Assembly (NCBI GenBank): GCA_038893995.1
Contig: JAWAQK010000001.1
Coordinates: 43,776 to 107,775, forward strand
From: Candidatus Thorarchaeota archaeon
Lineage (GTDB): Archaea; Asgardarchaeota; Thorarchaeia; Thorarchaeales; Thorarchaeaceae
Direction of reading: 5' to 3'
Length of the DNA stretch: 64,000 bases
Below, in pieces: positions 459-60,686 of this stretch. The first letter of the stretch is position 1. Every line of letters starts with the position of its first letter. A program made the position numbers and the translations under genes. The notes below the pieces were generated by a model. That model did no database searches. It worked only from the letters and a program-made list of their open reading frames with translations, and was not told the DNA's origin.

Positions 459-1514
459 TTGTTTGCCTCGACTGTGACAGGACTGACAACGTTGCTAGAC
501 AAGATGATCGCTCAGTCTAGGATGAGAGTCGCTCAAGACCGACAAGACGAGCTCGCGAAAGAACTCATGCGGAATGCCGCTCAGGGACAGTCGCCGCAAT
601 GGCTACTGATCTCGTCTATAGGACGGGCGGCTCAAGACCTGGACATGTGGAACGTGAAGAGAGGAGAGATGTTCTGTGCAACGCGTATCCCAGGAACGCC
701 AGTCCTCACTCCATCAGACGCTCTGGTCCTGTACGGCGGTCCAGTCGAGTACTTCCATCACTTCCCAGACCGAGTTGGAGCCGTGATGACGTTCGAGATG
801 GACGAGAGCAAGGCGATAGTGGACGAATCGGTCAGGAATATCACCAATGGCGGTCTGCATGACTGCAGCGTGGTGGCTCTTGAGGTCGACTATGAGTCCG
901 CGACAGTAGAACCAATTGCGTTCAATCTTCACGAGCCACGAGAGTTCCCGGGCAGGTTCGTCAGCTATGTCAAGACACCTTCACCTGTGGACGCGAGAGT
1001 CCTCGTAGTCATGTGCTCAGACTCACGCATCTGTCCTCCCGAGACCCCCGACGGGGTTCCCATGGTCATTCGCACTCTCGGAGGCTATCTCCCGCCATAT
1101 GCAGATGGAAGCAACGAGACAACCCTCCTCAATAGATACTTGAGAGTGTGGCTAACGGGCGGACCTGCAGACAAACACATCGTGATAGTTGCTCATGGCG
1201 ACTTTGGAGGGGGAGGTCAGCCATGTGGAGCGGCAAGGGCCGCACTCGATCCGTGCGGGGTGCATGGAGAGTGCCTCAGAGCAGTCATCCAGACCATTAG
1301 GAATGATACAATGAGATACGAGAGGACCGCCATCGTCGATCCGGAGTCCTCTGCAAGATCAATTGCTGAGACCACGAGAAGAAACATCATGTCCTACCCT
1401 GCCGTGGCCGAGTCTATCAGAGCAGGGACCGAGTCTGATGAACTTGTAGGAGTCCTTCTCATGGACACCGTGACAAACGAGCTGTTCCATGCGGATTTGT
1501 CAGACTTTGACTGA
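459..1514 (+). CDS. Protein with a degenerate beta-carbonic-anhydrase-like C-terminal domain.
   Basis: 351-aa ORF. Contains CSDSRI (matching the beta-CA signature C-[SA]-D-S-R-[LIVM]) and a downstream HGDFGGGGQPCG that aligns loosely with the second beta-CA motif (G-H-x2-C-G). The N-terminal 150 aa is unrelated to beta-CA. Confidence 0.4.
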   Translation: MFASTVTGLTTLLDKMIAQSRMRVAQDRQDELAKELMRNAAQGQSPQWLLISSIGRAAQDLDMWNVKRGEMFCATRIPGTPVLTPSDALVLYGGPVEYFHHFPDRVGAVMTFEMDESKAIVDESVRNITNGGLHDCSVVALEVDYESATVEPIAFNLHEPREFPGRFVSYVKTPSPVDARVLVVMCSDSRICPPETPDGVPMVIRTLGGYLPPYADGSNETTLLNRYLRVWLTGGPADKHIVIVAHGDFGGGGQPCGAARAALDPCGVHGECLRAVIQTIRNDTMRYERTAIVDPESSARSIAETTRRNIMSYPAVAESIRAGTESDELVGVLLMDTVTNELFHADLSDFD

Positions 1515-2130: not shown

Positions 2131-3189
2131 TCAGGACCTGGGAAGCAAGCGCCGTTTAAGTTCAGACTTCACGAACTCCTCACGGACAGTGTTATCTGCA
2201 CCCATCACAAACCGACGCAGCTCTTCGACCATCGATGATAGACCGTCTGCTGCGCTGATATAGGTGCTCAGGACGGATGATCCATCACGGAGATGTGCTG
2301 CGATTGCGAGCGCTGCCATCTCGCCACTCTCTATGGCAGGACGGATGCCCTCACCCGAGAGGGGATTGCATAGCCCTGCAGCGTCTCCGACCAGTAGCAC
2401 ATTCTCGGTACCGTAGATTGTGGGACCGATGGGAATGGACCATCTCTCATTGTTGAGCCTCTCCCGGCAGATCAGCAGACCCTCTCTCTCCAGCCACTCT
2501 CTTAGCATACGGAGGGAGGCTGTGATGTTCATTCTGGATCCTGAGAGAACGCCGGTCCCAACGATGACCTTTCCATCTTTAGGAATGAGATACGAACAGG
2601 CAGGCGAGATGTGTCTGTCAAATAGGACATAGAAGTCGCTCTCATAGTTCCCATCGCCATGCCATGTTTCCTGACCGACAATCATCAGGTTGAACTGACA
2701 TTGTGGGAACAGAACACGTCTGACAGAGGACCGTGCCCCATCTGCCCCGACGACGAAACGTGTGCGAAACAAGCAGGGATGACCCTCCACTTCACAGGCG
2801 ACCAAGATGTCATCGGTCTGCTCAAGTGAGATGAATCTGGTCGAGAACATCACACTCACACCCTCGTCACGGGCCAGGTCGATCAACCACTTGTCGAATG
2901 CGTCACGGTCGATATTATGGACCTCGTACCCATGCATCCTTCCGCCATTTGTCAGACCACTGGGCGGAACATAGGTCAGACCAAGCTGTGGGGGGTACGC
3001 ACTTACCTCGGGAGGAATGTCTCGGCCCAAGATCTGTTCGATTATGTCAGGGGCTACCAGAGGAAGTACACCGCCGCAGGGCTTGTGTCTTCCCCGCTCC
3101 CCTTTCTCCATCAGGAGTACGTTGAAACCCTGCCGGGCGCAACACACAGCTGCTGATACACCGCCGGGCCCCCCACCCACTACTATCAC
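2131..3189 (-). CDS. FAD-dependent geranylgeranyl reductase (digeranylgeranylglycerophospholipid reductase family).
   Basis: N-terminal Rossmann motif MIVVGGGPGGVSAAVCCARQGFNVLLMEKG. Length 352 aa. C-terminal GDAAGLCNPLSGEGI is typical of the GGR family. Confidence 0.8.
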   Translation of the reverse strand: MIVVGGGPGGVSAAVCCARQGFNVLLMEKGERGRHKPCGGVLPLVAPDIIEQILGRDIPPEVSAYPPQLGLTYVPPSGLTNGGRMHGYEVHNIDRDAFDKWLIDLARDEGVSVMFSTRFISLEQTDDILVACEVEGHPCLFRTRFVVGADGARSSVRRVLFPQCQFNLMIVGQETWHGDGNYESDFYVLFDRHISPACSYLIPKDGKVIVGTGVLSGSRMNITASLRMLREWLEREGLLICRERLNNERWSIPIGPTIYGTENVLLVGDAAGLCNPLSGEGIRPAIESGEMAALAIAAHLRDGSSVLSTYISAADGLSSMVEELRRFVMGADNTVREEFVKSELKRRLLPRS

Positions 3190-3208
3190 ATCGTAGGTAG
3201 TCGACAGC

Positions 3209-4801
3209 TCAGCGTCCCCCCATTAGACCCATCGCAGCAAGCCTCAACAGTACTTGCTCAAGCAGCTCAGTCTTAAGGGTAGTCTGGCTCTCGAAGACAC
3301 CTATGTAGGCCTCTCGTTCCTTGCCAAGGTCATAACAGGTAGAATCATCAATGTCGATCAGTATGGCCGGGACTCCTGTGGCGACAAAGTCATCATGGTG
3401 TTTGCAGAAGAATCCCTCACAACAGGACCCCACAAACCCCCTTGCGCCCCTTGCCTTGAACTCGTCAATGGTCGCGATCAGATGCTCGAAGTTCTGAATG
3501 GTACGATAGGGCACCCCGATCTTCTCTATGGTTTCTATCACAGTGCCTACAGTGCAGCCTCCACAGACTGAGCAGCCCTCTTTGCGTCGGTACTCGCACT
3601 CGACCAGCTTGGCACAGTAGGGTAGCAGTACGTAGTCAAACCTCTGCCGACCCAGATGCTCGGGGGAGAAGTTGACGTACATGAGATGGTTGGTCTCATC
3701 GAGCGACAGCCCTAGTTGAGTGAATGCCTGCTTTCGAATGGCCTCAACTATGACGTCTGCCAACTCTTGTGGCTGAATGCCGACCATCACCGCGCCCGAC
3801 TCTGCAAAGAATGACTCGACCTCGTGGCGTATTGTAGACTCGTCAGTGGAGATGTTCTTTAGTCTCGCCTCGAGGTCCATCATGGCCCTCTGAGGAAACA
3901 CCTGAAAATCACCAGTCAGCAGGCTACTCACGATGAAACGACCTGCACTGTCTATAGAGAGAGAGGCTCTCACGAGCCCGCCGGGAGTCTTCCTGACCGC
4001 ATTTACGTGTCCAGTGGACTCTGGTCTTCGACGCTCTAAGAAGATCCACTCATCAGACTGGAAGAAGGGCAGGCTCCTCTCATATGTCCGGATCTCTTCT
4101 TCAAGCAGGCCACCAGGAACCAGTCTGATTCCAAGGACGCTCTCGAAGCCCTCTGCGACTGTACTCTTGATCTCAGCCAATGACGGAGTGTATCCAAGTT
4201 CTCGTGACAACCAAGTGACACGGTCTCTCACACTCTCGATCTCCTTGTCCTTCAACTTCTCCATGGGAATCCTCAGTGACTTGAGCATCAGCTCAAGGTC
4301 GAAATCTATTAGTAGAGTTCCCTGATACATGAAGGACCCGCCTCTCTCGGTCCCTCCGGTCCCCGATATCTTCCGCCCACCTACCTCGATGTCGTTCCTG
4401 GGCCTGAATTCTGCACTGACACCGAGTTTCTTGAGCGCAATTACGACTGCGGAGCAGAGGGTCCGCGCAAGCCAATCGAGGTCCCGGCCCATCTCTGCAA
4501 TGCCTGGTGTCCTCTTGTCAGCATAGATCTCCCAGCCAAGACACTTTGGAGTGAACAGTATTGCACCGCCACCAGTTATGCGTCGATTGATGTCGACGCC
4601 GGTCCTGCGGCAATAGTCGATCCGGATCTCTTGTTCGACAGACTGGTGATAGCCTACAAGGGCAACAGGGGGATTGAACTGTAGGAAGCGTAGTGTATTT
4701 GGAGATATGCCGAGACTATGACACTCCAAAAGAGTGTCGTCCATAGCCATGTTCTGTGCGCCGGTAAGCACACCTGTGTCAAGAAGCCTCCACTCCTTCA
4801 T
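3209..4801 (-). CDS. lplA: Lipoate-protein ligase A (catalytic plus C-terminal accessory domain) fused to a roughly 170-aa Cys-rich C-terminal domain.
   Basis: Sequence MKEWRLLDTG...AQNMAMDDTLL...TLRFLQFNPPVALVGYHQSVEQEIRIDYCRRTGVDINRRITGGGAILF matches LplA/LipB-fold ligases. The extra C-terminal region carries a CAKLVECEY...CSVCGGC...GSCCEGFFCKHHDD cysteine cluster. The start is placed at the internal Met (MKEW), giving an ATGA-type overlap with the stop of the upstream gene at 4803. The ORF track gives 4918 as the longest start. Confidence 0.75.
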   Translation of the reverse strand: MKEWRLLDTGVLTGAQNMAMDDTLLECHSLGISPNTLRFLQFNPPVALVGYHQSVEQEIRIDYCRRTGVDINRRITGGGAILFTPKCLGWEIYADKRTPGIAEMGRDLDWLARTLCSAVVIALKKLGVSAEFRPRNDIEVGGRKISGTGGTERGGSFMYQGTLLIDFDLELMLKSLRIPMEKLKDKEIESVRDRVTWLSRELGYTPSLAEIKSTVAEGFESVLGIRLVPGGLLEEEIRTYERSLPFFQSDEWIFLERRRPESTGHVNAVRKTPGGLVRASLSIDSAGRFIVSSLLTGDFQVFPQRAMMDLEARLKNISTDESTIRHEVESFFAESGAVMVGIQPQELADVIVEAIRKQAFTQLGLSLDETNHLMYVNFSPEHLGRQRFDYVLLPYCAKLVECEYRRKEGCSVCGGCTVGTVIETIEKIGVPYRTIQNFEHLIATIDEFKARGARGFVGSCCEGFFCKHHDDFVATGVPAILIDIDDSTCYDLGKEREAYIGVFESQTTLKTELLEQVLLRLAAMGLMGGR

Positions 4802-4802
4802 C

Positions 4803-5825
4803 TCACTGAGCCTCAACAACTGCTGTGAACAGCGAACAACACTCATCAGACAAGACCACGCGGAGACCTCTCTTTCTCGCATAGTCAAATGCCTCTGGTG
4901 TGGGATATGCGATGGCACTCACCCCCGCATCTATCGCCAGACGATCAGTGAGGACACGGTGTTCTCCCAGTGGTCTTGCACAGCCGAGGATGATAGCCCG
5001 TTCGGGCATCGCGAACCTAGATGCTAGCAAGACCCGTGCTATGTCAATGGGCTCCGGCGGACGCACACCGGTCATCGGAGTCTCATCGAGGGGCATGAAT
5101 GCTACCACGACTACGGACTTGGTCTTGTGCCTCGAGATCAGTCTGATTGCGTTGCCCTCGCCCCTGAGACGGCCAAAATAAAGACCGACAACAACGTGCG
5201 GTACGATCTCAACACCATTCTCCTCCAGTAGATCCATTGATCGGTCAAGGGACTCTGGGCCCATATCAAGGTGATATATGTCATGAAGGGTCTCACGGTC
5301 GCCGATTATGTCAATCATGGCACCATCAACCCCTGCATCAGCCAGTCCCCTGGCGACGTCGGGATACACAATTCCGGTGTGTACCACCAGGTGGAGACCG
5401 AGTTCCCTCTTCACTCTCTTCATGACCTGCGTGTATCGTGATATGGGAGTGTTGCCAAGCCGCGTAGATCCCCCGCTGACCAGTATTCCCTTGCCACCTC
5501 TCCTGACGACTTCCAAGCATATCTCCCACAGCTGCTCCGGCGTCCTGGCAGGGAGCATACTCTCAAGGAGCTTGCCCCTGCAGTGCTCACAGTTGAGAGA
5601 GCACTCCGTACCTGTGACCGAAACGCTCGGGAATCTGAAGATGTTCGTGCCCGAGTAGAAGTCAGTCTCATAGTGTCGCATGCCTGGCATGTGAAATGAT
5701 ATCACGTCGGAGAACCTCTCCCGTGTCAGGCTGTAGGCCCGACTGAACAGGTTCTCAAGGACCTCGACCGGAAGGTCCAGGCACTCCTCAACGGACGGAA
5801 ATGTCTCAGTCAAACTCCGGCTCAT
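4803..5825 (-). CDS. Radical SAM protein. It is a candidate LipS-type lipoyl synthase component.
   Basis: CSLNCEHC (Cx3Cx2C) near the N-terminus and a TIM-barrel-like G-rich region. 340 aa. Sits in the same operon as lplA and a second radical-SAM gene. The archaeal two-component lipoyl synthase LipS1/LipS2 is the known precedent. Confidence 0.55.
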   Translation of the reverse strand: MSRSLTETFPSVEECLDLPVEVLENLFSRAYSLTRERFSDVISFHMPGMRHYETDFYSGTNIFRFPSVSVTGTECSLNCEHCRGKLLESMLPARTPEQLWEICLEVVRRGGKGILVSGGSTRLGNTPISRYTQVMKRVKRELGLHLVVHTGIVYPDVARGLADAGVDGAMIDIIGDRETLHDIYHLDMGPESLDRSMDLLEENGVEIVPHVVVGLYFGRLRGEGNAIRLISRHKTKSVVVVAFMPLDETPMTGVRPPEPIDIARVLLASRFAMPERAIILGCARPLGEHRVLTDRLAIDAGVSAIAYPTPEAFDYARKRGLRVVLSDECCSLFTAVVEAQ

Positions 5826-7080
5826 CCATCCTATACTCTAGCGAATAGTCCCAGATCTGGGTCCGGATCGTATTCAGGTCGTCGTCTGTTGGCGGAAAGG
5901 GCAGGTTTCTCCAATGACCTATGGAGGCCTGGTAGGGTGTGCAGTTACCCATGGGCCGGTTGCATGCATACTTATGGTTCGGACTCGAGCAGCCAGACGT
6001 CATGAAGGCCTCGCCTCTCGAGATCGTCTGGTCCAGCACCTGTGACGGTACCCCGAAATCAATCAGTTGCCCCATTCTGTTGAACTTCATCTGATCGGCC
6101 CTCGCAATGCCCTCGTTGATCATGTAGCGGGCCAGCTGGACTCTCCGATACGCGCCGAGGGGTGGCTGATGGTGTGTTTCCATGATTGACCCCTCCTCAG
6201 GAAAGAAAGAGAATAGATGAGTGTCTGCACCCCTGTCATATGCGCTCTGTATTGTCTCTATCATCTGCTGCTCGGTCTCGCCTAGCCCAACTATGAGATG
6301 GACACCCACGTTGTGTCGTCCGAATATCTCTACGGCCTCGTCCAGTGTCTTCCAATATCGCTCCCACTTGTGTGGGCCGCGAACACCGCTTCCACGTAGC
6401 CTGTCAAACAGATCAGGCGTAGCGGCATCAATGGCCACCCCAATCTTGTCCGCACCGATTTCTCTGACCCTTGCCAGCCACGCACGATCGACTATCGTAG
6501 GCGTCACCAACACTGAGATGTGGTCCATCACTTCCCGCAGGCTAGACACGACCGTGAGTGCGTCCTGACGCGCCCTGCCGGTTGTGATCATTGAAACGCA
6601 GATTCTCTCCACGTGAGGACATTTCCTGTCGGCAATTGCAGCCTTCACATCGTCAACGGAGACAATCGGCCAATCGACTCGAATGAAGGTGTTATTGACC
6701 CAGTCCGTATTCGTGACTCGAGAACCTGAGAGGCCGCAATAGGCACAACGCGCATGACACCCCTCGTCATACGTGAGCAGCAGATTGATGCAGTAGAGCT
6801 TTGCATCCCTGTAGAATCGGCCGTTCGCCTTACCCATTGTCATATAGGCGGCTAGACTCGTGCGGACAAACTCCGGTGACTCGAGGATCCGATCTTCCTG
6901 ATTGACAACATCACGTACGGACATCTTGGGGGTCACCGACAACGTAGAGAGCCACCTTTGCGCTCTTATTACAGTTTCCATAGGAATATTGCAGGGGGCA
7001 TGAATGACTGCGCCTCTGCGATTGCACCAGGGTCCAGGCTGAGTGAGCACTACTCTTAAGTCTGCAGAGACAGACCGCAT
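5806..7080 (-). CDS. Radical SAM protein. It is a candidate LipS-type lipoyl synthase component.
   Basis: CHARCAYC (Cx3Cx2C). 424 aa. Overlaps the downstream radical-SAM gene by 20 nt and sits in the lplA operon. The start is uncertain (internal Mets at METVIRAQ and MSVRDVV). Confidence 0.55.
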   Translation of the reverse strand: MRSVSADLRVVLTQPGPWCNRRGAVIHAPCNIPMETVIRAQRWLSTLSVTPKMSVRDVVNQEDRILESPEFVRTSLAAYMTMGKANGRFYRDAKLYCINLLLTYDEGCHARCAYCGLSGSRVTNTDWVNNTFIRVDWPIVSVDDVKAAIADRKCPHVERICVSMITTGRARQDALTVVSSLREVMDHISVLVTPTIVDRAWLARVREIGADKIGVAIDAATPDLFDRLRGSGVRGPHKWERYWKTLDEAVEIFGRHNVGVHLIVGLGETEQQMIETIQSAYDRGADTHLFSFFPEEGSIMETHHQPPLGAYRRVQLARYMINEGIARADQMKFNRMGQLIDFGVPSQVLDQTISRGEAFMTSGCSSPNHKYACNRPMGNCTPYQASIGHWRNLPFPPTDDDLNTIRTQIWDYSLEYRMDEPEFD

Positions 7081-7149: not shown

Positions 7150-8073
7150 GTGATGAAGACTAGCATGGAGAGGATAGCGTTTAGGCGGAGTCAGTTGCTC
7201 ACCATTGTACTCATCTGCATTGCAGCTGTAGTGGGCACTTGGGCATACCTGACAGGGGCCGCTCTTCCCGATGATACGCCACCACTGACTCCATGGAGTG
7301 TGTTGATCCTGATAGCAGTTGGTACGATGGCAGGTATCCTCGGCGGACTGATTGGCACTGGGGGATGTAGTATAATGCTACCAATACTACACTTCTGGTT
7401 GGGCTACCCAGCACCGGTGGCCATTGGGACCACGCTATTTGCAGTCATCTTCACTGCAACTTCCGGCGGTCACGGCCATCTAATACGTGGAAACATTGAC
7501 AGGAGCGCTGCAATGTGGTTGGGTGGCTTTGGTCTGATTGGTATCCTGATAGGGTCGTGGCTGTTTACAATTCTTGCTTCACAAGTAGCATTACTGGGAC
7601 TCATCCTCGGCATGGCGTTCATCCTGCCAGCTCTGCGGATGATATGGGAGGGGTCAAGACCTGCGGAACAGCCCCAAAAGGTAGGAGAGATGATCCAAGG
7701 CTCAAGATACCGAATGGGAGTCTTTGGAATCATCATCGGTGTCCTGACGGGCATTGTAGGCCTTGGTGGCGGCTATGCACTTGTCCCCGGCCTGATCTAC
7801 CTCTTCGGTGCCCCTGTGTATCTCACAATGGGCACATCTCTGTTGACCATGATACCCCTTGCACTGGTCGGAGGGACCATCAAGCTTGCACAGGGGTTCG
7901 TGGCTCTTGTAGCCGCTGTGACAATGGGGGCCGGCTCCACTGTGGGTGCCAGGTTCGCTGCGTCTATAATCAGACGCTTCAAGCCAACTCAACTGAAACT
8001 GCTCTTTGGCATCTACTTTCTCTACGTGTCGCTGAAGTTCATCCTCGGCTACTTTGGAATCATGATATGGTAG
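7150..8073 (+). CDS. TauE/SafE (DUF81) family membrane exporter.
   Basis: 307 aa and polytopic. Gly-rich helices GGLIGTGGCSIMLPIL and GIIIGVLTGIVGLGGGYALVPGLIYLFG are typical of the sulfite-exporter TauE/SafE family. Confidence 0.6.
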   Translation: MMKTSMERIAFRRSQLLTIVLICIAAVVGTWAYLTGAALPDDTPPLTPWSVLILIAVGTMAGILGGLIGTGGCSIMLPILHFWLGYPAPVAIGTTLFAVIFTATSGGHGHLIRGNIDRSAAMWLGGFGLIGILIGSWLFTILASQVALLGLILGMAFILPALRMIWEGSRPAEQPQKVGEMIQGSRYRMGVFGIIIGVLTGIVGLGGGYALVPGLIYLFGAPVYLTMGTSLLTMIPLALVGGTIKLAQGFVALVAAVTMGAGSTVGARFAASIIRRFKPTQLKLLFGIYFLYVSLKFILGYFGIMIW

Positions 8074-8728: not shown

Positions 8729-9676
8729 ATGGTGCCTCTATCACGGATATACAGAAAGGCAATGATCACTCTACTTGAACTGGGGGTCATACTCACACCC
8801 ACTGCGTTATGGTGGATCGTCATGGATGGACTTGGACTCCCAGTCATGTCGGTCTTCCTGGAACTTGCGCTTCCTATAGCCGGACTCGGACTTGTGTTCC
8901 TCATGCTCGGAGGCATCGAGGTCGTGATGAACATCCATCAACACAGTGTCGCTGTCCGGGGCATCAAGTCCGTCCTCAGCTCCGCCAATATCTCCGGCCA
9001 GTTTACCCCGGCAATGCAACCGGCATATCTCCTTGCGGACTCAATGGACAGAGAGGTGCTCGCAGCCATCAGGGAGATTGGCTCAGACATCCTCGACATA
9101 GAGGATCATCTGGCAAGTAGCGCAGTGCTCCCTGCCGGACAGGACACCTACCGTGTCCTCGCCAAGCTGCGAATGTTGGGGCTGATCATGATATCAGAGA
9201 AATGGGGGAAGGTGTTTCTGACTTCGGCAGGGATTGATGCACTGAATACGCCTGCAATCATGTACACGACGCGGATCCCCGATCAAGTCTGGAACTATGT
9301 GTTTAGCGAGAAGGTCCATCTGTGGAATCAAGAGTGGGGCGAAGTCGTGATCTCTGCTACGAGAGCACTTGAGGCTGCAATGAAGGAGAGGGTCAGGGTC
9401 AGTGTGAGCGCACGGCCTGAGCTGGAACAGGAGATAATGGAGATGGCTGCCGGCAAGCCGGTTGAGACCTGGAGCGCAGGCAATCTGCTTGGAGCCCTGC
9501 GTAAGATAGGCGTGGTGAGATCCAGTAGCCTTGAGGACGTGTTGGCTGGCGAGATCATAAAGACGAGGAATCTGGTTCACGACAAGGGAAGAGAGTACAC
9601 GTTCGGACCGGGAGATGCGGACCGCTGCGACACATGCCTGAGTATCCTGCTGAGGTCATGGTATGGTCCCCGGTGA
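8729..9676 (+). CDS. Hypothetical protein (two N-terminal TM helices plus a soluble helical domain).
   Basis: 315-aa ORF after a 650-bp non-coding gap. The hydrophobic N-terminus is LLELGVILTPTALWWIVMDG / LALPIAGLGLVFLMLGG. No recognisable catalytic motif. Confidence 0.4.
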   Translation: MVPLSRIYRKAMITLLELGVILTPTALWWIVMDGLGLPVMSVFLELALPIAGLGLVFLMLGGIEVVMNIHQHSVAVRGIKSVLSSANISGQFTPAMQPAYLLADSMDREVLAAIREIGSDILDIEDHLASSAVLPAGQDTYRVLAKLRMLGLIMISEKWGKVFLTSAGIDALNTPAIMYTTRIPDQVWNYVFSEKVHLWNQEWGEVVISATRALEAAMKERVRVSVSARPELEQEIMEMAAGKPVETWSAGNLLGALRKIGVVRSSSLEDVLAGEIIKTRNLVHDKGREYTFGPGDADRCDTCLSILLRSWYGPR

Positions 9677-15639: not shown

Positions 15640-17724
15640 TTGGCTCATCTGTACAAGAGATTCGTTGGAGAGAAGGTCGTAGGTCTCCTTGAGAACATCA
15701 AGAACATCAGGAACTGTACAGTGATTGCCCACATCGATCATGGAAAGACGACCCTGACAGACTCCCTCATTGCAGCGTCGGGCCTCCTATCGGACGACCT
15801 GGCTGCGTCTGTGAAGCTCCTAGACTACGATGCCATTGAGCAACAGAGAGGCATTACTATCAAGGCATCCAGCATATCGCTGGTCCATAGGAGGAACGGA
15901 CAGGACTTCCTAATACACCTGATCGACACACCGGGCCACATAGACTTCTCATTCCACGTCACCAAGGGACTCAGGATGGCAGACGGAGCCATCGTCGTGG
16001 TTGACATAGTCGAGGGTATAATGGTACAGACTGAGACTGTGACACGTCAGGCGGCCACTGAACTCGTCAGACCAGTGTTGTTTGTCAACAAGATAGACAG
16101 ACTGATATCTGAGAAGCAATACGGAGCCCAGAGGATCGCGTCAGAGGCGGGTCGAATCGTAACAGAGTTCAACGCAATGCTAGGCAAGTATCTACCCGAT
16201 GAGATCCTCAGTGAATGGGAGGTGTCATTTCGACGAGGGTCCCTGGTCATCGGTTCGGCTCTGGACAAATGGGGAATTGACATCGTTGCACTCATGCATC
16301 GGGCCGGAAACGATCGGCAGCCCAGGAAACTCGAGAGAGCACTCATGGAGATCCTTGAGGATATCGTGTCCCTATACAGAGAGGGTCAGGAGCAGGTCCT
16401 CTCGAGAAGATATCCACTGGCCAGGTGCGTCCTAGACGCAGTCGCTGATAGCGTGCCCAGTCCGGATGTTGCCCAGTCATATAGAGTCAGACACTTCTGG
16501 CGTGGCGATACTGAGTCTGACGTTGGTAGGGCCCTGCTGAGATGCGAGAGAGATACGGGCTGCATAGTGTCCGTGGGCGATGTTCAGTCAGACAGACATG
16601 CTGGGACTGTCGCAGCCGTACGCGTGATGACTGGCAGGCTCACAAGAGGTCATGAACTACGGAATCTGAGGACGGGGAAGGTGTCAAGAACCCTGCAGGT
16701 AGGGCTATTCATGTCCAAGACCAGGGTTCCTGTCGATACAGTCCCTGCGGGAAATCTCGCATTCATCACTGGCATTTCCGAAGTGGCAATTGGCGACACG
16801 CTCGTGGAGGGGGACATGCCCAAGATCCAGCCGCTTGATGAACCTCAGTATCCAACTGAACCCGTCGTCACCTACAGTGTGGAGCCCAGGAACCTCGCGG
16901 ACCTGAAGAACATACAGGAACCAATCATGAGGATGGTCCAGTCGGACCCTTCACTCGAGTTCTATGTGAGTCCGGACTCTGGCGAAAACCTGCTCTCGGG
17001 AGCTGGCGAACTTCACATCGAGATAGTGGTGGAGAAGTTGGCCAGAGAGGGAGTGGAGATAGTCGTTGGGAAGCCGATGGTAGTACTCAAGGAGCAGATG
17101 GCCCACGATGGGGAGACCCAAGAAGCGGGAGGAGGAGATGTCAGCTGGTTCAGGGTCCGTGCCCTGCTCACACCAGAAGGACTTGAGTCACCGCCTCCCG
17201 GTACCGTATTCTCAGATGCAAGACAGGGATGCTACCTAGTGGACCAGACAGGCACCATCAACGCACAAAGTCCGGCGTTCGAGTGGGTGGTCGACGGATT
17301 CAAGACCCTGATACGTAATGGGCCTGTGTCCGGGGAGAGGATGAGACGGTTGACAATCAGGATCGAGGATGCCACGATAGTTGCAAGCACACCTGAAACA
17401 TCGTGGAGGGATGTCACACAGCCACTGATTGATGCGTCTAGGGCCAGCATCCTGAGTGGTAAGCCCATGCTGATGGAGCCATGGACAAGGCTTGAGATCA
17501 ACACCCCTGGCCAATACGTCGGTGACGTGAGTGCAATAGTAGCCCGTAGGGGAGGCAGGATAATCGATCTGACTTCGACCAGGTTCATGTTCAAGATAGA
17601 GGCCGAGATACCAGTGAGACAGTCATTCGGATTCTCGACGGAGCTGAGGACTGCGACATCAGGATGGGCGACCTGGGGCGCGCGCTCGGGCGGATATCGA
17701 CCAGTCAGCAATGATAGATCATGA
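15640..17724 (+). CDS. Divergent EF-2/EF-G-family GTPase paralog.
   Basis: G1 AHIDHGKTT, G3 DTPGH, G4 NKID and five-domain length (694 aa). Domain IV reads EDATIVASTPETSWRDV with no His at the diphthamide position. It lies 5 bp downstream of the acyltransferase gene. Confidence 0.8.
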   Translation: MAHLYKRFVGEKVVGLLENIKNIRNCTVIAHIDHGKTTLTDSLIAASGLLSDDLAASVKLLDYDAIEQQRGITIKASSISLVHRRNGQDFLIHLIDTPGHIDFSFHVTKGLRMADGAIVVVDIVEGIMVQTETVTRQAATELVRPVLFVNKIDRLISEKQYGAQRIASEAGRIVTEFNAMLGKYLPDEILSEWEVSFRRGSLVIGSALDKWGIDIVALMHRAGNDRQPRKLERALMEILEDIVSLYREGQEQVLSRRYPLARCVLDAVADSVPSPDVAQSYRVRHFWRGDTESDVGRALLRCERDTGCIVSVGDVQSDRHAGTVAAVRVMTGRLTRGHELRNLRTGKVSRTLQVGLFMSKTRVPVDTVPAGNLAFITGISEVAIGDTLVEGDMPKIQPLDEPQYPTEPVVTYSVEPRNLADLKNIQEPIMRMVQSDPSLEFYVSPDSGENLLSGAGELHIEIVVEKLAREGVEIVVGKPMVVLKEQMAHDGETQEAGGGDVSWFRVRALLTPEGLESPPPGTVFSDARQGCYLVDQTGTINAQSPAFEWVVDGFKTLIRNGPVSGERMRRLTIRIEDATIVASTPETSWRDVTQPLIDASRASILSGKPMLMEPWTRLEINTPGQYVGDVSAIVARRGGRIIDLTSTRFMFKIEAEIPVRQSFGFSTELRTATSGWATWGARSGGYRPVSNDRS

Positions 17725-22482: not shown

Positions 22483-23031
22483 TTGACTGCCGAATATAGA
22501 TTCAAGGTGGTCATGCTCGGTGATGGCGCGGTAGGGAAGACTGCGCTCACCAACATGTTCACGCAGGGCCACTTCATCTCCGAATACAAACGGACGATTG
22601 GGTCAGACTTTGCAGTCAAACGTGTCTCAGTACCCCAGAGGAATGCACAGGTCACTCTCCAGGTATGGGACTTGGCAGGACAACCACGATTCGAGATAGT
22701 CAGGCAATCTTTCTATCGTGGAGCAAGAGGAGGATTGCTTGTCTACGATGTCACACGACGCAGGACATTCCTGAACCTCGATCACTGGAGACAGGAAACT
22801 AAGAACAGTCTGAGTCGCGAAATACCCCTGGTCGTGGTCGCCAACAAGGTGGATCTGACAGGCGCACGCGTCGTGACGAGGGAGGAGGGAGAACAGTATG
22901 CTGCCAAGAGCGGACTCATATATGTGGAGGCAAGTGCACTCACAGGCCAGAACGTAGAGGATGCATTCGTGGAACTATGTGTCGAGATGATCGACGAGTC
23001 AAAGTCGGAAGCGAGATCTCAGACAGGTTGA
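22483..23031 (+). CDS. Rab/Ras-like small GTPase (Asgard type, no C-terminal prenylation motif).
   Basis: G1 GDGAVGKT. Switch I YKRTIGSDF (Rab-like TIGxDF). G3 WDLAGQ. G4 NKVDL. G5 EASA. 182 aa. Confidence 0.8.
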   Translation: MTAEYRFKVVMLGDGAVGKTALTNMFTQGHFISEYKRTIGSDFAVKRVSVPQRNAQVTLQVWDLAGQPRFEIVRQSFYRGARGGLLVYDVTRRRTFLNLDHWRQETKNSLSREIPLVVVANKVDLTGARVVTREEGEQYAAKSGLIYVEASALTGQNVEDAFVELCVEMIDESKSEARSQTG

Positions 23032-24179
23032 CCCTTCAAGAGGCCTAGATGCTTCTTGCACTGCCAGACGATATAGAAGATGGTCTTGTCCTGCAACACC
23101 TCACTGCCATATTGTGACATCAGGGACTCGAACCTGCGTACCAGATCAACCCTTCTCTCGCCTGCAGTATCGCTCTCGATCTCTCGCAGCAGTGCCTGGA
23201 GGGGCTCAATCATTGCAGTCCTGTCGACGATTTCCCACCGCCTTATTGCTCCGGTGGACTCACAGGTCAGGAACTCGTTCGAATCTGCCACCCATTCTAG
23301 AGAGTCCGGTTCGCCCCGTGTCATTGTCTCGGCCTGCCTAGTGAAATCACTTGTCCGCCACAGGAAGATGTTCTTGTCAGCAGACCCAGACGCAATAAGG
23401 GACCCATCGTGGTTGAATCCCACACAGCGGACCTCTTGTGTATGTCCTGTGAGTGTCTTCTCATGTCTGAGCTGCCCGTCTGAGGCGTCCCAGACCATGA
23501 CCGTCTGATCAGAAGATGCCGAGGCCACCCTGGTACCGTCCCTGGAAAAGCGCACCTGATGCAGTGCAGATCTGTGTTCTTGGAGCCACTCTATCCTCTC
23601 ACCAGTCGTCGGATCCCAGAGACCAATCATCGCATCGACACCACCGGACACTATCCGATCTCCACGAGGATCCCAGTCGCAGGACACTACGTATAGAGAA
23701 TGGCCCTTGAGCTGTCTCAGTGGCTTGGAACTGCCGATGTCCCACACCATGAGGGTCGTATCGCCACTCGATGACACTAACCTATCGCAGTCGGGAGAGA
23801 AGGCGAGCGACAATATGGGATACCGATGACCCTCGAGACGACATATCAACTCTGCACTCCTGACGTCCCAGACCTTGATAACCCTGTCAACACCACCAGA
23901 CGCTATCACATCACTCCGGGGGCTGAATGCAAGGGCTGTGCACAGGAAGTCGTCTGTGATTCGCTGGACCTCTTGGCAGTCTCTCGCATCGTACAGACGT
24001 ATTGTTCGGTCCTGATGAGCAGCAGCGAACATGCGTCCCACTCTGTTGATGGTGAAACGACGAATGATGTCGTCAGCAGTTTCCGCCTCGGGTCTTAGCA
24101 GCCTAGGACGAAGAAACAATGATGGTACGGACTCCGTCATCTTGCTCACCAGAGTGATTGTCATCGTCTCAAGCAGCAT
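23019..24179 (-). CDS. WD40 repeat (7-bladed beta-propeller) protein with a C-terminal helical tail.
   Basis: Seven GH...WD-type repeats (VWDVRS, MVWDIGS, IGLWDPTT, VMVWDASD, IFLWRTSD, IRRWEIVD). The C-terminal roughly 70 aa are non-WD. Starts 82 bp downstream of the second Rab-like gene on the same strand. Confidence 0.8.
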   Translation of the reverse strand: MLLETMTITLVSKMTESVPSLFLRPRLLRPEAETADDIIRRFTINRVGRMFAAAHQDRTIRLYDARDCQEVQRITDDFLCTALAFSPRSDVIASGGVDRVIKVWDVRSAELICRLEGHRYPILSLAFSPDCDRLVSSSGDTTLMVWDIGSSKPLRQLKGHSLYVVSCDWDPRGDRIVSGGVDAMIGLWDPTTGERIEWLQEHRSALHQVRFSRDGTRVASASSDQTVMVWDASDGQLRHEKTLTGHTQEVRCVGFNHDGSLIASGSADKNIFLWRTSDFTRQAETMTRGEPDSLEWVADSNEFLTCESTGAIRRWEIVDRTAMIEPLQALLREIESDTAGERRVDLVRRFESLMSQYGSEVLQDKTIFYIVWQCKKHLGLLKGQPV

Positions 24180-24261: not shown

Positions 24262-24834
24262 TCAGAGAGTACTCTGGCCAATCGACTCGACCATCATGAT
24301 GATGAGCTCAATGAATGCCTTCTCCACGTTGTGTCCGGTCTTGGCAGATGTTTCAAGGAAGACCGTGCTGACCCCACTTTCTCTGAGCGCCTGTGTGAAC
24401 TTCTCACCCTCCTGCGTCGTGACTATCGATCCCTTCATGGCAGGATTGTCCTTGAACTGGTCCCGGAGATCAGTCTTGTTGCCGATGACTACAATAGGAA
24501 TGGTCTTGCCTGTGTTCGCCCAGCACTCCTCAAGCCAGTTGGGAAGATTATCAAATGACGAACGTTCCACAGTCGAGTATACAGCCAATGCTCCCTGGGC
24601 ACCCTTGTAGAAGGTTGATCGTACGTTCTTGAAGTGAGCCTGTCCAGCAAGATCCCATATCTGGATGTGCACCTCTGTGCCACTCTCAAGTGCCAGTTTT
24701 TTCACTGCGAAATCGGCGCCGATGGTGACCATGTATGAGGCCTTGAAACCTTCGCCCATGTAGGTCCGACGGAGCGAAGTCTTACCTACTGAGCCGTCGC
24801 CCATGAGAACTATCTTGAACAATGCTCTCGGCAT
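24262..24834 (-). CDS. Rab/Ras-like small GTPase.
   Basis: G1 GDGSVGKT. TIGADF. WDLAGQ. GNKTDL. ETSAKTGHNVEKAF. 190 aa. Confidence 0.8.
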   Translation of the reverse strand: MPRALFKIVLMGDGSVGKTSLRRTYMGEGFKASYMVTIGADFAVKKLALESGTEVHIQIWDLAGQAHFKNVRSTFYKGAQGALAVYSTVERSSFDNLPNWLEECWANTGKTIPIVVIGNKTDLRDQFKDNPAMKGSIVTTQEGEKFTQALRESGVSTVFLETSAKTGHNVEKAFIELIIMMVESIGQSTL

Positions 24835-30333: not shown

Positions 30334-31251
30334 ATGTTCGTGTTCAAGAGAGAGCAGACAGTCTTTGACGCAGGAGGTGTCAGGATAGGCGGTCAGCCAG
30401 GTGAGAATCCCACAGTCCTCGTTGGAGGTCTGTTCTTCAAGGGTCAGCCGATAGTTGAGGATGTCAGCAGTGGGAGGTTTGATCAGGCACTGGCTGCTGA
30501 ATGGATATCGACTGCGATGGGCATGTCCCAGAGGACTGGGCATCCGCTCATCCTGCAGGTCTATGGCGCCACGCCAGAGGCAATGGAGAGGCATCTACAG
30601 TGGGTCACAGAGAAGTTCGATGGCCCCTTCATGTTTGAGTCTACCAACAGTGATGCAAGGAAGCGAGGTATCACCTACTGCAGTGAAGTCGGACTCGAGA
30701 ACAGGACCATTTACAACTCGGTCAACATGTCCATGAGGGATGACGAGAGAGAAACTCTGAGGAACAGTCCGATACACATGGCGGTCATCCTTGGATGGTC
30801 ACCCCGGATTGTCTCAATGCTGGACAGGATGGAACTGATCAGGTCCACATTGAGTGAGGCGGAGGGCCTGGGAATCGATGTCTTCCTCGTGGATCCAGCC
30901 GTGATGCCAGTCGGAGCGGGCTATGGGAGTGAGTACAGGACCCTGATCTCCATCAAGGCAGAACTTGGACTCCCGACCTGTCTTGGGCCTCACAATGCGG
31001 TGTCGTCCTGGAGCTACCTCAGACAACACAGTTCCGACAATAGAGACATGTATCTTGCATCAATCGCTGCGTCTGTCGCTGCGGCTCAGGTCTGTGCCGC
31101 GGACTGCATAATGTTCGGTTCTCTGCAGTGGGCGAGGGAGATATTCGCATCAGTGGCACTCGTTCAGAACGCCATAGTGACAGCTGTGGGAGAGGCTGAC
31201 GAGACACTCGGGCTGAAGCGAGATCTGTTCGAACCACCAACATGCAGATAG
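30334..31251 (+). CDS. mtrH: MtrH-like corrinoid:tetrahydromethanopterin/tetrahydrofolate methyltransferase.
   Basis: MFVFKREQTVFDAGGVRIGGQPGENPTVLVGGLFF...GHPLILQVYGATPEAMERHLQWVTEKFDGPFMFEST matches MtrH/pterin-binding (DHPS-like) methyltransferases. Confidence 0.75.
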   Translation: MFVFKREQTVFDAGGVRIGGQPGENPTVLVGGLFFKGQPIVEDVSSGRFDQALAAEWISTAMGMSQRTGHPLILQVYGATPEAMERHLQWVTEKFDGPFMFESTNSDARKRGITYCSEVGLENRTIYNSVNMSMRDDERETLRNSPIHMAVILGWSPRIVSMLDRMELIRSTLSEAEGLGIDVFLVDPAVMPVGAGYGSEYRTLISIKAELGLPTCLGPHNAVSSWSYLRQHSSDNRDMYLASIAASVAAAQVCAADCIMFGSLQWAREIFASVALVQNAIVTAVGEADETLGLKRDLFEPPTCR

Positions 31252-31264
31252 GGGGTGCTGAGAC

Positions 31265-31957
31265 ATGACCAATTCTGACAAGCGAAAGTGGCCGCCGGTA
31301 CCAGGTGACTACCGTGTCGGGAATGCCAGCAGCCCTGTCGCCATCTGCACACTGGGAAAATGGATTGATGTCGATGTCGACTACGCGATTCTTGGCACCT
31401 GCAAGACAGAGAACATAGGAATTGAACGGATCATCGTAAATACCATATCAAATCCTCACATCCGATTCTTCATTCTTGCAGGCCCCGAGGTCCCAGGACA
31501 CAGGACCGGTGCCTCGATAAGAGCCCTGTTTCAGAACGGGGTCGATCCCAGAGACCGCAGAATAGTAGGAGCCGAGGGCGCAATACCCTACATCGAGAAC
31601 ATTCCACTCGAGGCAATCGAACGTTTCCGGAGGCAGCTTACGCTCTGCGACATGTTAGATGTGGTAGAACCCGAGAGAATCAGGGCGGCGGCAGTGGCCC
31701 TTATCTCAAGACCAGTGGAACCTCTCGCAGAGGAACCGATGTGGGTTGACTTTGGGTCAGGCAAGCGAAGTACGCAGCATGCGATGCAGGCAGGGAGTGT
31801 CTCTTTAGTCCCCGAGTTAGGACTGGTCCTGGATCCGCGCATATCCATGGTATCCAGACAGAGCCGAAGTGCAACGGTGACCCAGCATCCGTCACCAGCG
31901 GGCGTGGAGATTCAGACTAGGGATGGGGGAACACTACTGATGGCAAGGGGGTATTGA
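31265..31957 (+). CDS. mtrA: MtrA-like corrinoid-binding protein (soluble, no C-terminal TM anchor).
   Basis: YRVGNASSPVAICTLG...TCKTENIGIERIIVNTISNPHIRFFILAGPEVPGHRTGASIRALFQNGVDPRDRRIVGAEGAIPYIENIPLEAIERFRRQ aligns closely with the MtrA N-terminal cobamide-binding domain, including the His in GHxTG. Confidence 0.75.
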   Translation: MTNSDKRKWPPVPGDYRVGNASSPVAICTLGKWIDVDVDYAILGTCKTENIGIERIIVNTISNPHIRFFILAGPEVPGHRTGASIRALFQNGVDPRDRRIVGAEGAIPYIENIPLEAIERFRRQLTLCDMLDVVEPERIRAAAVALISRPVEPLAEEPMWVDFGSGKRSTQHAMQAGSVSLVPELGLVLDPRISMVSRQSRSATVTQHPSPAGVEIQTRDGGTLLMARGY

Positions 31958-31960
31958 GAG

Positions 31961-32896
31961 TTGTTTGTGTTCGAGAGAGAACAATACATCTACAACATCG
32001 GAGGCGTCAGGATAGGGGGCAACCCGGGCGAGAGAGCGACTGTACTGGCTGGCACCATATTCTATTCGGGAGACAAGACTGTCAGCGACCCCAGTGCGGG
32101 TGTGTTCGACAGGACCGCGGCCGAGACACAGATCCGGAACCAGGATGCGATCTCAGAGACTACGGGAAATCCTGCACTGGTACAGGTATTCGCAGAGTCG
32201 GAGAGCGCCATGACGAGGTATATCGACTTCGTGACCGAGATGACAGACGCTCCGTTCCTCATTGACTCCACGGATCCGAAGGTCCGGATAGCCGGTCTCA
32301 GACACGCAGAAGAGGTGGGAGTCATAGGTCGGGCCATCTACAACTCGCTCAATGTCAGCATCAACACAGAAGAGTTGCAGACTCTCTCCGAACTGAGACC
32401 AGAGGCCGCGATCATATTGGCTTTCAATCCTGCCGACACGTCAATTGCTGGAAGACGTGCAGTGCTAGAGGAACCGTATGCTGAGTATGGCGAGGGTCTG
32501 CTATCACTTGCCAAGAGGGTCGGAATAACAAAGCCCCTCGTCGATACCGCAACTACTGCTATGGGCGCAGGAGCAGGTCCATCTGTGTCTTTCGTGTTCG
32601 TGGCCAAGAGCGTCTATGGTCACCCAACAGGATCTGGAATCCACAACGCTCCATCATCGTGGCCATGGCTGAGAGCGCACAAGAAGGTCAACCGTGCGGC
32701 CTTTGAGGCATGTGATGTCGCATCGGCACTGCTCGTACATTCTATGGGGGCGGACTTCATCTTGTACGGGCCCATCGTGAATGCAGACAGGGTCTTTCCT
32801 GTGGTGGCCATGGCTGATGTCCTGGCCGCAGAGTCTCTGTCTACGGAGTTTGGTCTGGGGCCACCTGAGAATCACCCATTCCGAAGGCTCCTATGA
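31961..32896 (+). CDS. mtrH: MtrH-like methyltransferase (second paralog).
   Basis: MFVFEREQYIYNIGGVRIGGNPGERATVLAGTIFYSGDKTVSDPSAGVFDRTAAE...DAPFLIDSTDPKVR. Starts 3 bp after mtrA. Confidence 0.75.
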   Translation: MFVFEREQYIYNIGGVRIGGNPGERATVLAGTIFYSGDKTVSDPSAGVFDRTAAETQIRNQDAISETTGNPALVQVFAESESAMTRYIDFVTEMTDAPFLIDSTDPKVRIAGLRHAEEVGVIGRAIYNSLNVSINTEELQTLSELRPEAAIILAFNPADTSIAGRRAVLEEPYAEYGEGLLSLAKRVGITKPLVDTATTAMGAGAGPSVSFVFVAKSVYGHPTGSGIHNAPSSWPWLRAHKKVNRAAFEACDVASALLVHSMGADFILYGPIVNADRVFPVVAMADVLAAESLSTEFGLGPPENHPFRRLL

Positions 32897-32918
32897 CAGA
32901 TGTCGAGGAATCCGGTCA

Positions 32919-60113: not shown

Positions 60114-60686
60114 CTTGGAATTACTTCGACAACCCCCATCACACAACAGGCCAGCTGCGAAGAAGTCTGGCGGGGGAACCACGTGGGCGTGGCACTTGGA
60201 GCGACGTCCAGACTATCCAATAAAAGATTATCGTCATGACTCGAGGAATTCAGGACGGCTCCAGTCGCGAGAGGCCATATGTCGTTTCTACGACCATGAG
60301 ACATGACTGCAGAGCACTCACTGAATAGGAACACATAATCTAGAGTGGTCCGACATATGGCCGCAGGTTTAGATGTATGCGGGACAGTGACCACCAGAGT
60401 GGAGCGACCCGCACCTGTCGTTCTCGCCGGGAGGGAAGCAGACTTGACCAACAGGAAGTATACGTCCAGTAAGGACTACGGGTCGTATCTCCGTCGGAGG
60501 AGACTTATAACTTACCTATAAAGATATTCTTCTGAGCATTGGGGGAACGATCTGTCGCAAAATCGAGGAGCCACTCAAGACAGTTTGGAAGTATCGGCAC
60601 GAGTCAGGGACCCCAACTCGAGAACGATTCTGGAGGCCTAGCTGAGCTGAGGCTGCGAGAAGGACATCACAAAACGAACAGTTGAA

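Follow-up and report, generated by a model that had tools for sequence, protein, structure and literature searches.

We analysed a 64-kb stretch of DNA from a Candidatus Thorarchaeota archaeon (contig JAWAQK010000001.1; hereafter the window, whose positions serve as coordinates throughout) and found on its minus strand, from 2131 to ~6927, four closely packed genes in the order lipS2-lipS1-lpl(AB)::DUF116-lipT. On the evidence of sequence, these four genes very probably form a lipoyl-cofactor assembly operon. Its lipoate ligase, Lpl(AB), continues at the C-terminus into a cysteine-rich domain of the DUF116 family, and this fusion is real, ancient-looking and widespread. The lipoate assembly pathway is already known (Jin, 2020; Neti, 2022, PMC9585515; Tanabe, 2023, PMC10332631), and one paper, which does not mention DUF116, describes the lipS1-lpl(AB)-lipT-lipS2 cluster and notes that it is prevalent among Asgard archaea (PMC10332631); the ligase-DUF116 fusion is undescribed in the searchable literature. 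A sequence-only reading of the same DNA had proposed a plausibly complete ligate-then-sulfurate module made of three overlapping minus-strand genes. The strand, the three genes and the pairing of an Lpl(AB) ligase with two LipS proteins all stand; the module is, however, not new, the ligase gene overlaps no neighbor, and a fourth gene, which encodes the flavin adenine dinucleotide (FAD) protein LipT (2131-3189 (-)), had been missed. We propose that the DUF116 domain would act as an Fe-S electron relay between LipT and the radical S-adenosylmethionine (SAM) clusters of the two synthase subunits. That role is in our judgment finely balanced; the statement that combines the module with the relay we modestly favor.

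The gene boundaries were set from the open frames and from the N-termini of homologues. The lipS2 frame is open over 5806-7080 (-) for 424 codons and contains the motif CHARCAYC; homologue N-termini suggest that its start is most likely the ATG at 6927, which would give a protein of 373 aa (5806-6927). The lipS1 gene (4803-5825 (-), 340 codons, motif CSLNCEHC) overlaps lipS2 by 20 nt (5806-5825), the sole overlap among the module genes. The ligase frame is open over 3209-4918 (-), or 569 aa, and homologue N-termini place its start at the ATG at 4801 (MKEWRLLD), 1 nt past the lipS1 stop, so that the two genes do not overlap and the fusion protein has 530 aa plus the stop (3209-4801). The first canonical start of lipT, a GTG at 3189, lies 19 nt beyond the ligase stop. 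A chance origin of this gene set is excluded, because the family E-values range from 1e-48 to 1e-64 and the same set is found in dozens of unrelated genomes.

The ligase part has the Lpl(AB) architecture and not that of a LipB/LipM transferase, as follows from structural matches to LplA and LplB that include the LplB accessory domain, the feature separating ligases from LipB/LipM octanoyltransferases. Residues 1-255 (4037-4801) form the LplA catalytic domain (PF21948, 165.6 bits against a Pfam cut-off of 27) and residues 262-340 (3782-4018) an LplB-type accessory domain (NF053749, 33 bits, E 5.1e-08, below the cut-off of 65); the bacterial equivalog TIGR00545 scored 143 bits and its cut-off of 280 was not reached. 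An AlphaFold2 model of the whole ligase, built with 58 homologues, had a mean predicted local distance difference test score (pLDDT) of 85.9. Foldseek placed Thermoplasma acidophilum LplA (2art, 3r07_A) among its closest structures, with E ~1e-23 and a target-normalised template modeling (TM) score of ~0.85, and superposed the modelled residues 262-340 on T. acidophilum LplB (3r07_C) with a target-normalised TM of 0.90. Within the GRKISGTGG motif, K144, which we take to be the catalytic lysine of LplA, is conserved in at least 90% of the 58 homologues, and I145, S146, T148 and G149 are invariant.

Behind the ligase, a helical linker (residues 341-371; 3689-3781), whose AlphaFold2 helix at 344-363 appears amphipathic from its sequence, leads into the extra domain (residues 372-530; 3212-3688). 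A C-terminal cysteine-rich domain of roughly 170 aa had been noticed before, together with a possible DUF116-type affiliation. The domain is indeed there, its size is corrected to ~140-160 aa, and the affiliation is borne out: PF01976 (DUF116) scores 29.0 bits on the whole protein and 31 bits on the domain alone, above the gathering cut-off of 25, and matches 24/24 aligned family members (best E 5.7e-12). The match spans positions 42-143 of the 155 in the Pfam model, which is the soluble core only; the two N-terminal transmembrane helices of canonical DUF116 are absent, and the ligase and the linker helix precede the core instead. Where the domain stands alone, which is rare, its N-terminus is formed by this same linker segment (341-371).

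Eight cysteines of the domain (C396, C402, C410, C413, C416, C460, C461 and C489) are invariant in 82/82 sequences, archaeal and bacterial alike. The first group, C396-x5-C402-x7-C410-x2-C413-x2-C416 (3554-3616), contains the CxxCxxC hallmark of DUF116 in C410-x2-C413-x2-C416. The second (3335-3424) comprises C460-C461 (GSCCEGF), H468, which is conserved in 95% of the 82 sequences, and C489 (TCYDLG). The pattern C..C...C.VCGGC...CCEGFFC read from the letters alone therefore needs one amendment: its final cysteine, C466, is conserved in only 10%. A domain-only AlphaFold2 model (pLDDT 89.1, predicted TM score 0.86) has strands alternating with helices, and the cysteine sites are the loop that follows strand 1 and the positions immediately beyond the ends of strands 3 and 4. 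All eight cysteines are thus predicted, from the secondary structure of the model, to follow the C-terminal ends of β-strands, the usual cofactor site in flavodoxin-like folds. Foldseek comparison of the domain with the PDB returned only weak matches to PurE, TIR, type II dehydroquinase, B12-binding and CheY-like structures (E at least 4.5e-3, TM ~0.4); these are generic flavodoxin-/Rossmann-like folds, and for the modelled domain they are consistent with a flavodoxin-like fold, not diagnostic of it. No related solved structure was found below E 1e-3 by Foldseek or in a PDB sequence profile search, and permissive Pfam scans gave no other family that was consistent across the 24 members. A relationship to the CCG domain of HdrB, which the CC motif and the link between lipoate and sHdr had brought to mind, was rejected, as no HdrB/CCG entry occurred in the Foldseek top 50 or in the permissive Pfam scans of the 24 members.

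The fusion is not a peculiarity of one genome. In a scan of one genome per GTDB species, we detected it in at least 352 species-level genomes, both archaeal and bacterial; the neighborhood counts given below come from the best 80 of the 352 genomes' loci, which are 54 archaeal and 26 bacterial records. Among these 80, the archaeal carriers are Thor-, Prometheo-, Baldr- and Jordarchaeota, Bathyarchaeia, Terraquivivens, Nitrososphaeria, Altiarchaeales, Thermoplasmata and Methanomassiliicoccales, and the bacterial carriers Anaerolineae, Dehalococcoidia, Desulfosarcina and other 'delta' lineages, Bacillota, Planctomycetota, Actinomycetota and Nitrospinota. Over 120 clusters at 90% identity were retrieved with the 530-aa protein; almost all of them have 520-550 aa, full coverage and an LplA plus DUF116 annotation, a few entries being truncated, and the best matches are from Thorarchaeota (72% identity), then from Bathyarchaeia and others. 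When the domain alone was searched with phmmer against 1.84 billion representatives, only 182 clusters at 50% identity were obtained. Among the 150 matches listed, most had ~520-550 aa with the domain at ~370-520, nearly all the full-length ones had the fusion architecture, and the shorter ones were fragments or small stand-alone versions. So few clusters, mostly of fusion architecture, suggest that the Lpl-fused DUF116 is a distinct and divergent clade, essentially dedicated to the ligase. We found no paper discussing the fusion in the searchable literature, public entries being named automatically (e.g. 'DUF116 domain-containing protein'), and in a full-text search DUF116/COG1852 was discussed only by Makarova et al., 2015 (PMC5898192).

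The gene neighborhood is equally constant. DUF116 lies in one open reading frame (ORF) with Lpl(AB) in 78/80 loci, the remaining two being cut by a contig end or masked. Where the contig leaves room, LipT is present in 69 of 74 loci and sits immediately downstream on the same strand in 61 of the 74; of the 58 loci with enough flank, 49 have all three of LipS1, LipS2 and LipT, and 17 have a GcvH-like gene nearby. Flanking genes beyond the four are not conserved. Natural fusions are rare overall and join the components in several combinations: a continuous Lpl(AB)-DUF116-LipT polypeptide (P0145), LipT-LipS1 as one ORF in a metagenome-assembled genome (MAG) of Thermoplasmata (L072, 2551-4725), LipS2-LipS1 as one ORF in a Planctomycetota MAG (L069, 4405-6393), and three proteins in which a CdhB/epsilon-type domain (PF02552) is joined to DUF116 in an LplA-LplA-DUF116-CdhB-like arrangement (P0244, P0255 and P0254). 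Together they chain the ligase to DUF116, LipT, LipS1 and LipS2 in turn, which argues for one physical assembly.

Two further features of the loci deserve mention. Next to the module, mostly just after LipT, eight Thorarchaeota loci (L008, L015, L017, L019, L024, L026, L027 and L031) encode an additional LplA-like paralogue that is shorter (~350-390 codons, phmmer 144-171 bits); the 64-kb window contains no second LplA-like ligase. The fusion cluster of some MAGs, from Thermoplasmata and from bacteria, has an sHdr-LbpA-type sulfur context, being located near GcvH/LbpA-like and HdrC/B/A-like, CCG-domain, TusA or DsrE genes (L078 8667-11011, L042, L068, L003 1-1369 and L086 1230-3847), and this context is absent from the window. 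In L086 the DUF116-bearing ligase is part of a cluster of the kind known from sulfur oxidisers, tusA-dsrE-gcvH/lbpA ... lipT-lipS2-FadL-like.

The two radical-SAM proteins were compared with NCBIfam models and, by BLASTP, with the Thermococcus kodakarensis subunits TK2109 and TK2248, whose sequences were taken from the supplement of Neti et al. (PMC9585515). The ORF at 4803-5825 matches the LipS1 family (NF053742) with 213.6 bits (E 3.7e-63) and the ORF at 5806-7080 the LipS2 family (NF053743) with 216.7 bits (E 4.4e-64); LipS1 is 32% identical to TK2109 (E 2e-38) and LipS2 30% identical to TK2248 (E 4e-43). Both scores stay under the curated equivalog cut-offs of 230 and 270, which suggests that the window pair belongs to a divergent subgroup. 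In LipS1, the radical-SAM motif C75-x3-C79-x2-C82 aligns with C27/C31/C34 of TK2109, and H210 (PHVVVGL), C282 (GCARPLG) and C329/C330 (ECC) align with its H159, C230, C276 and C277; all are invariant across 60 homologues, from other loci. In LipS2, numbered on the 424-aa ORF, the radical-SAM motif C108/C112/C115 is invariant in 65 homologues, as are C161 (RICVSMI), C364 and C373 (GC...CNRP), which align with C85, C276 and C279 of TK2248; a 6-aa insertion separates the last two cysteines relative to TK2248. The Thermococcus residues H159/C230/C276/C277 of LipS1 and C85/C276/C279 of LipS2 have been implicated experimentally, by mutagenesis, in auxiliary [4Fe-4S] clusters (PMC9585515). The LipS1-like and LipS2-like identities suggested from sequence are thereby upheld, and in the comparison with TK2109 and TK2248 every auxiliary-cluster ligand is aligned. 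By analogy, LipS2 would insert sulfur at C8 of octanoyl-lysine and LipS1 at C6 of 8-mercaptooctanoyl-lysine.

Both proteins also have subgroup-specific extensions. The N-terminus of LipS1 (5640-5825) runs ~48-60 residues beyond TK2109 and the NCBIfam model, with P47 conserved in at least 97%, and the C-terminus of LipS2 (5809-5935) has a ~40-residue tail in addition to the 6-residue insertion. These elements might serve as docking sites for the DUF116 and LipT partners. Sequence and profile searches of the PDB found no solved LipS1 or LipS2 structure.

LipT (2131-3189 (-)) is a putative FAD-binding oxidoreductase of the geranylgeranyl-reductase family, an assignment based on family membership and gene context: Pfam FAD_binding_3 matches with E 6.3e-18, TIGR02032 (GG-red-SF) scores 150.8 against a cut-off of 158.8, which is not reached, and the cysteine of its PCGG motif, C38, is invariant among homologues. 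The start of the gene is peculiar in the window (3189-3222 (-)) and in loci L005, L008, L009, L012, L013 and L031. In the window, the open frame of LipT begins at 3222, within the last part of the ligase gene, in the +1 frame relative to the ligase and across a run of six G, and reads WGDAELSTTYDVIVVGGGPGG; the sole canonical start ahead of the Rossmann motif is a GTG, the V of 'YDV'. The LipT frames of 56 of 65 loci have a canonical start over 8 codons farther upstream, in most cases one that overlaps the stop of the ligase gene, and three loci (L008, L009 and L031) have no canonical start at all. That the first canonical start precedes the ligase stop in most loci is consistent with translational coupling; the pattern could reflect such coupling, use of a non-canonical start codon, homopolymer sequencing errors, or recoding that yields a ligase-DUF116-LipT fusion of the P0145 kind.

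The following scheme would unite these components. By homology, Lpl(AB) would adenylate free octanoate (or lipoate) and transfer it to the lysine of a lipoyl-carrier protein, presumably encoded elsewhere in the genome; LipS2 would then insert sulfur at C8 and LipS1 subsequently at C6, each subunit being expected to hold one radical-SAM [4Fe-4S] cluster and one sacrificial auxiliary [4Fe-4S] cluster as the sulfur source. Radical-SAM enzymes need a low-potential one-electron donor. We infer that the DUF116 domain may bind one or two iron-sulfur (Fe-S) clusters through its eight invariant cysteines and could shuttle electrons one at a time between the flavin of LipT and the radical-SAM clusters of the two synthase subunits, and that all four proteins may work as one complex around the ligase-bound acceptor protein. 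The case for DUF116 as a redox partner is drawn from the invariant cysteines with their ferredoxin-like CxxCxxC, the strand-end positions in the model, the adjacency of LipT, the natural fusions and the prediction of Makarova et al., 2015 (PMC5898192), who proposed from sequence that DUF116 proteins are metal-binding, flavodoxin-like, membrane-anchored and involved in electron transfer. The rare fusions (ligase-DUF116-LipT, LipT-LipS1 and DUF116-CdhB-like) tie the domain physically to redox partners. A bolder form of the proposal, in which DUF116 would be the dedicated partner of the two-component lipoyl synthase in vivo, as an obligatory low-potential electron gate or a sacrificial-cluster donor in a four-protein 'lipoyl synthesome' assembled on the ligase, seems to us doubtful.

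Several observations weigh against this scheme. Zinc sites would also fit the DUF116 cysteines by their sequence, Fe-S binding being a prediction, and the spatial grouping of the cysteines is predicted from the secondary structure of the model. A bacterial lipS1-slpl(AB)-lipT-lipS2 set devoid of DUF116 lipoylates LbpA in E. coli (PMC10332631), so the domain is not universally required for the pathway. DUF116 is fused to the ligase and not to a radical-SAM enzyme, an arrangement for which a simple electron carrier would have no evident use. The scores of both LipS proteins lie below the curated NCBIfam cut-offs. Finally, no lipoyl-acceptor gene was detected in the 64 kb by phmmer with two GcvH sequences, and Pfam scans of the other large ORFs gave no E2, GcvH or GcvP/T.

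In E. coli, NfuA and IscU regenerate the auxiliary cluster of LipA, and flavodoxin with flavodoxin reductase is the radical-SAM reductant. These systems provide cluster resupply and one-electron donation, and DUF116 could fill either role; the analogy is functional only, as the domain is related to Nfu, IscU and flavodoxin neither in sequence nor in fold. One alternative to the relay, already suggested in the sequence-only reading, is a dedicated Fe-S cluster or sulfur donor that would restore the sacrificial auxiliary clusters of both synthase subunits after each turnover, in the way that NfuA/IscU serve LipA, and would thus make the synthase catalytic. LipS1 and LipS2 consume these clusters and achieve ~1-1.5 turnovers with the physiological ferredoxin system (PMC9585515), so a regeneration partner is needed; the eight invariant cysteines, the tight co-location with both synthase genes and the position of some canonical DUF116 genes beside sulfite-reductase components (PMC5898192) would all suit such a role. 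However, the partners to which the domain is most strongly linked, in part covalently, are proteins that bind flavin or nucleotides (LipT, CdhB-like) and not the synthases, and no Fe-S assembly genes recur beside the fusion. As a matter of general knowledge, eight invariant cysteines in a small domain resemble stably bound clusters more than a labile transfer site. Moreover, in Thermococcus the general SmsB2C2 scaffold loads apo-LipS1/S2 directly (PMC12442378). The fusion and neighborhood evidence points more towards an electron relay with LipT than towards a sulfur donor, and we regard the donor role as improbable.

Somewhat less probable still is a structural or regulatory module, in which the cysteines would form zinc sites or a redox or Fe-S-status sensor, and the domain would dock LipT, LipS1 and LipS2 on the ligase or gate ligation. 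This model would lead one to expect the domain on the ligase and not on the redox enzymes, as is the case, the DUF116-less pathway does work in E. coli (PMC10332631), and the fusion chain makes a complex likely whatever the chemistry. It accounts less readily for a CxxCxxC with five more invariant cysteines on a probably flavodoxin-like scaffold, a combination typical of cofactor binding, for the recurrence of DUF116 in other redox contexts (PMC5898192), and for its fusion with a CdhB-like domain.

LipT and DUF116 could also together form a reductase that acts on an acyl or dithiolane substrate, either converting an enoyl or isoprenoid-derived C8 precursor into octanoate in archaea without fatty-acid synthase or reducing the lipoyl disulfide, which would explain the tethering of the domain to the ligase; we consider this very unlikely. 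LipT does belong to the geranylgeranyl-reductase family and has the invariant PCGG cysteine of that family, some bacteria have DUF116 joined to polyprenyl synthetase (PMC5898192), the archaeal octanoate source is an acknowledged gap, and the domain sits on the enzyme that binds the free acid. However, LipT-LipS1 fusions exist, and LipT accompanies LipS1/S2 also in bacteria with normal fatty-acid synthesis (PMC10332631).

That the radical-SAM proteins belong to another family (BioB, PylB or activases), and that the cluster is not a lipoyl synthase, is effectively refuted: weak secondary matches to BioB (37.2 bits, E 1.8e-09, the second-best NCBIfam family for LipS1; 26.8 bits, E 2.8e-06, for LipS2, whose second-best family scored 59 bits), to the BATS domain and to PylB, and the former annotation of the T. 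kodakarensis LipS1/LipS2 as biotin synthases (title of PMC9585515), are outweighed by LipS1/LipS2 models that outscore BioB by ~180-190 bits, by BioB scores far from the TIGR00433 equivalog cut-off of 225, by retention of the LipS-specific auxiliary ligands (the C-terminal CC of LipS1 and the GC...CNRP of LipS2), and by a lipoate ligase co-located in almost all of the 80 loci, with GcvH-like genes often near.

The preferred reading, a lipoyl assembly operon with DUF116 as a relay, can be set beside the systems already described. The lipS1-slpl(AB)-lipT-lipS2 route was shown genetically and biochemically by Tanabe et al., 2023 (PMC10332631), and LipT was proposed there as the electron source. 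The sLpl(AB)-LipS1/LipS2-LipT sets of Thioalkalivibrio and Hyphomicrobium encode the same four functions together as the window does, and in these sulfur-oxidiser clusters, as in the window, the genes are tightly packed with stops and starts that overlap or abut (PMC10332631). In contrast, the ligases of that study have no extra C-terminal domain, a ligase of ~360 aa being implied for H. denitrificans by a deletion that spans residues 8-349 and leaves the last 35 bp (PMC10332631), whereas in the window a DUF116 domain of 160 aa, with its eight invariant cysteines, follows the ligase. The window also has no LbpA/GcvH or sHdr genes. With TK2109 and TK2248 of T. kodakarensis (PMC9585515), the window proteins share 30-32% identity, the CX3CX2C motifs and the proposed auxiliary ligands; they differ in the N-terminal extension of LipS1 (~48 aa relative to TK2109) and in the 6-aa insertion between the C-terminal ligand cysteines and the longer C-terminus of LipS2 relative to TK2248. 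Canonical DUF116 proteins (COG1852/arCOG02078, e.g. MMP0162; PMC5898192) have, like the window domain, a CxxCxxC, at least six conserved cysteines, a core that is predicted to be α/β and probably flavodoxin-like, and a recurrent association with redox enzymes, but they stand alone with two N-terminal transmembrane helices, whereas the window has a soluble core behind a ligase. LplA_LipA_fuse (NCBIfam NF053790) provides a precedent for coupling ligation and sulfur insertion in one polypeptide; its partner is canonical LipA, and the window protein matches it only through the LplA part (96.7 bits against a cut-off of 800). In Thermococcus, we presume, the lipoate genes are dispersed and the ligase is bipartite and free of DUF116.

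In vivo, this pathway needs a reductant for the radical-SAM clusters and a means of replacing the auxiliary clusters that are destroyed at each turnover. With its conserved cysteines, its attachment to the ligase in at least 352 species-level genomes and a LipT gene nearly always behind it, the DUF116 domain is a directly testable candidate for one of these two roles. Long an orphan family, DUF116 thereby acquires a first strong association with a function, and the fusion further suggests that ligation and sulfur insertion occur in one physical complex.

The rest of the window looks like an Asgard (Thorarchaeota-like) chromosome, with TFIIB, Ras/Arf-family GTPases, WD40, MtrH/MtrA, NrdD and two EF-2 paralogues among its contents. 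Two Ras-family small GTPases (22483-23031 (+) and 24262-24834 (-)), an Arf-like GTPase (61607-62440 (-)) and a WD40 β-propeller (23019-24179 (-)) are typical eukaryote-like Asgard signature genes and fit the Thorarchaeota affinity of the ligase. A TauE/SafE-family permease (7150-8073 (+)) is divergent from the operon; it was rejected as a member of the system, being not syntenic with the module (one TauE match in 84 loci), and the other flanking genes are likewise not syntenic. Two ORFs of more than 300 aa have no confident family: the one at 459-1514 (+) has only a sub-threshold β-carbonic-anhydrase match (E 7e-4), and the one at 8729-9676 (+) has no Pfam match. The two EF-2/EF-G-family paralogues are encoded at 15640-17724 (+) and 57888-60182 (-), and an MtrH-MtrA-MtrH-DUF2114 row at 30334-34355 (+) resembles a corrinoid/methyltransferase-type module in a non-methanogen.

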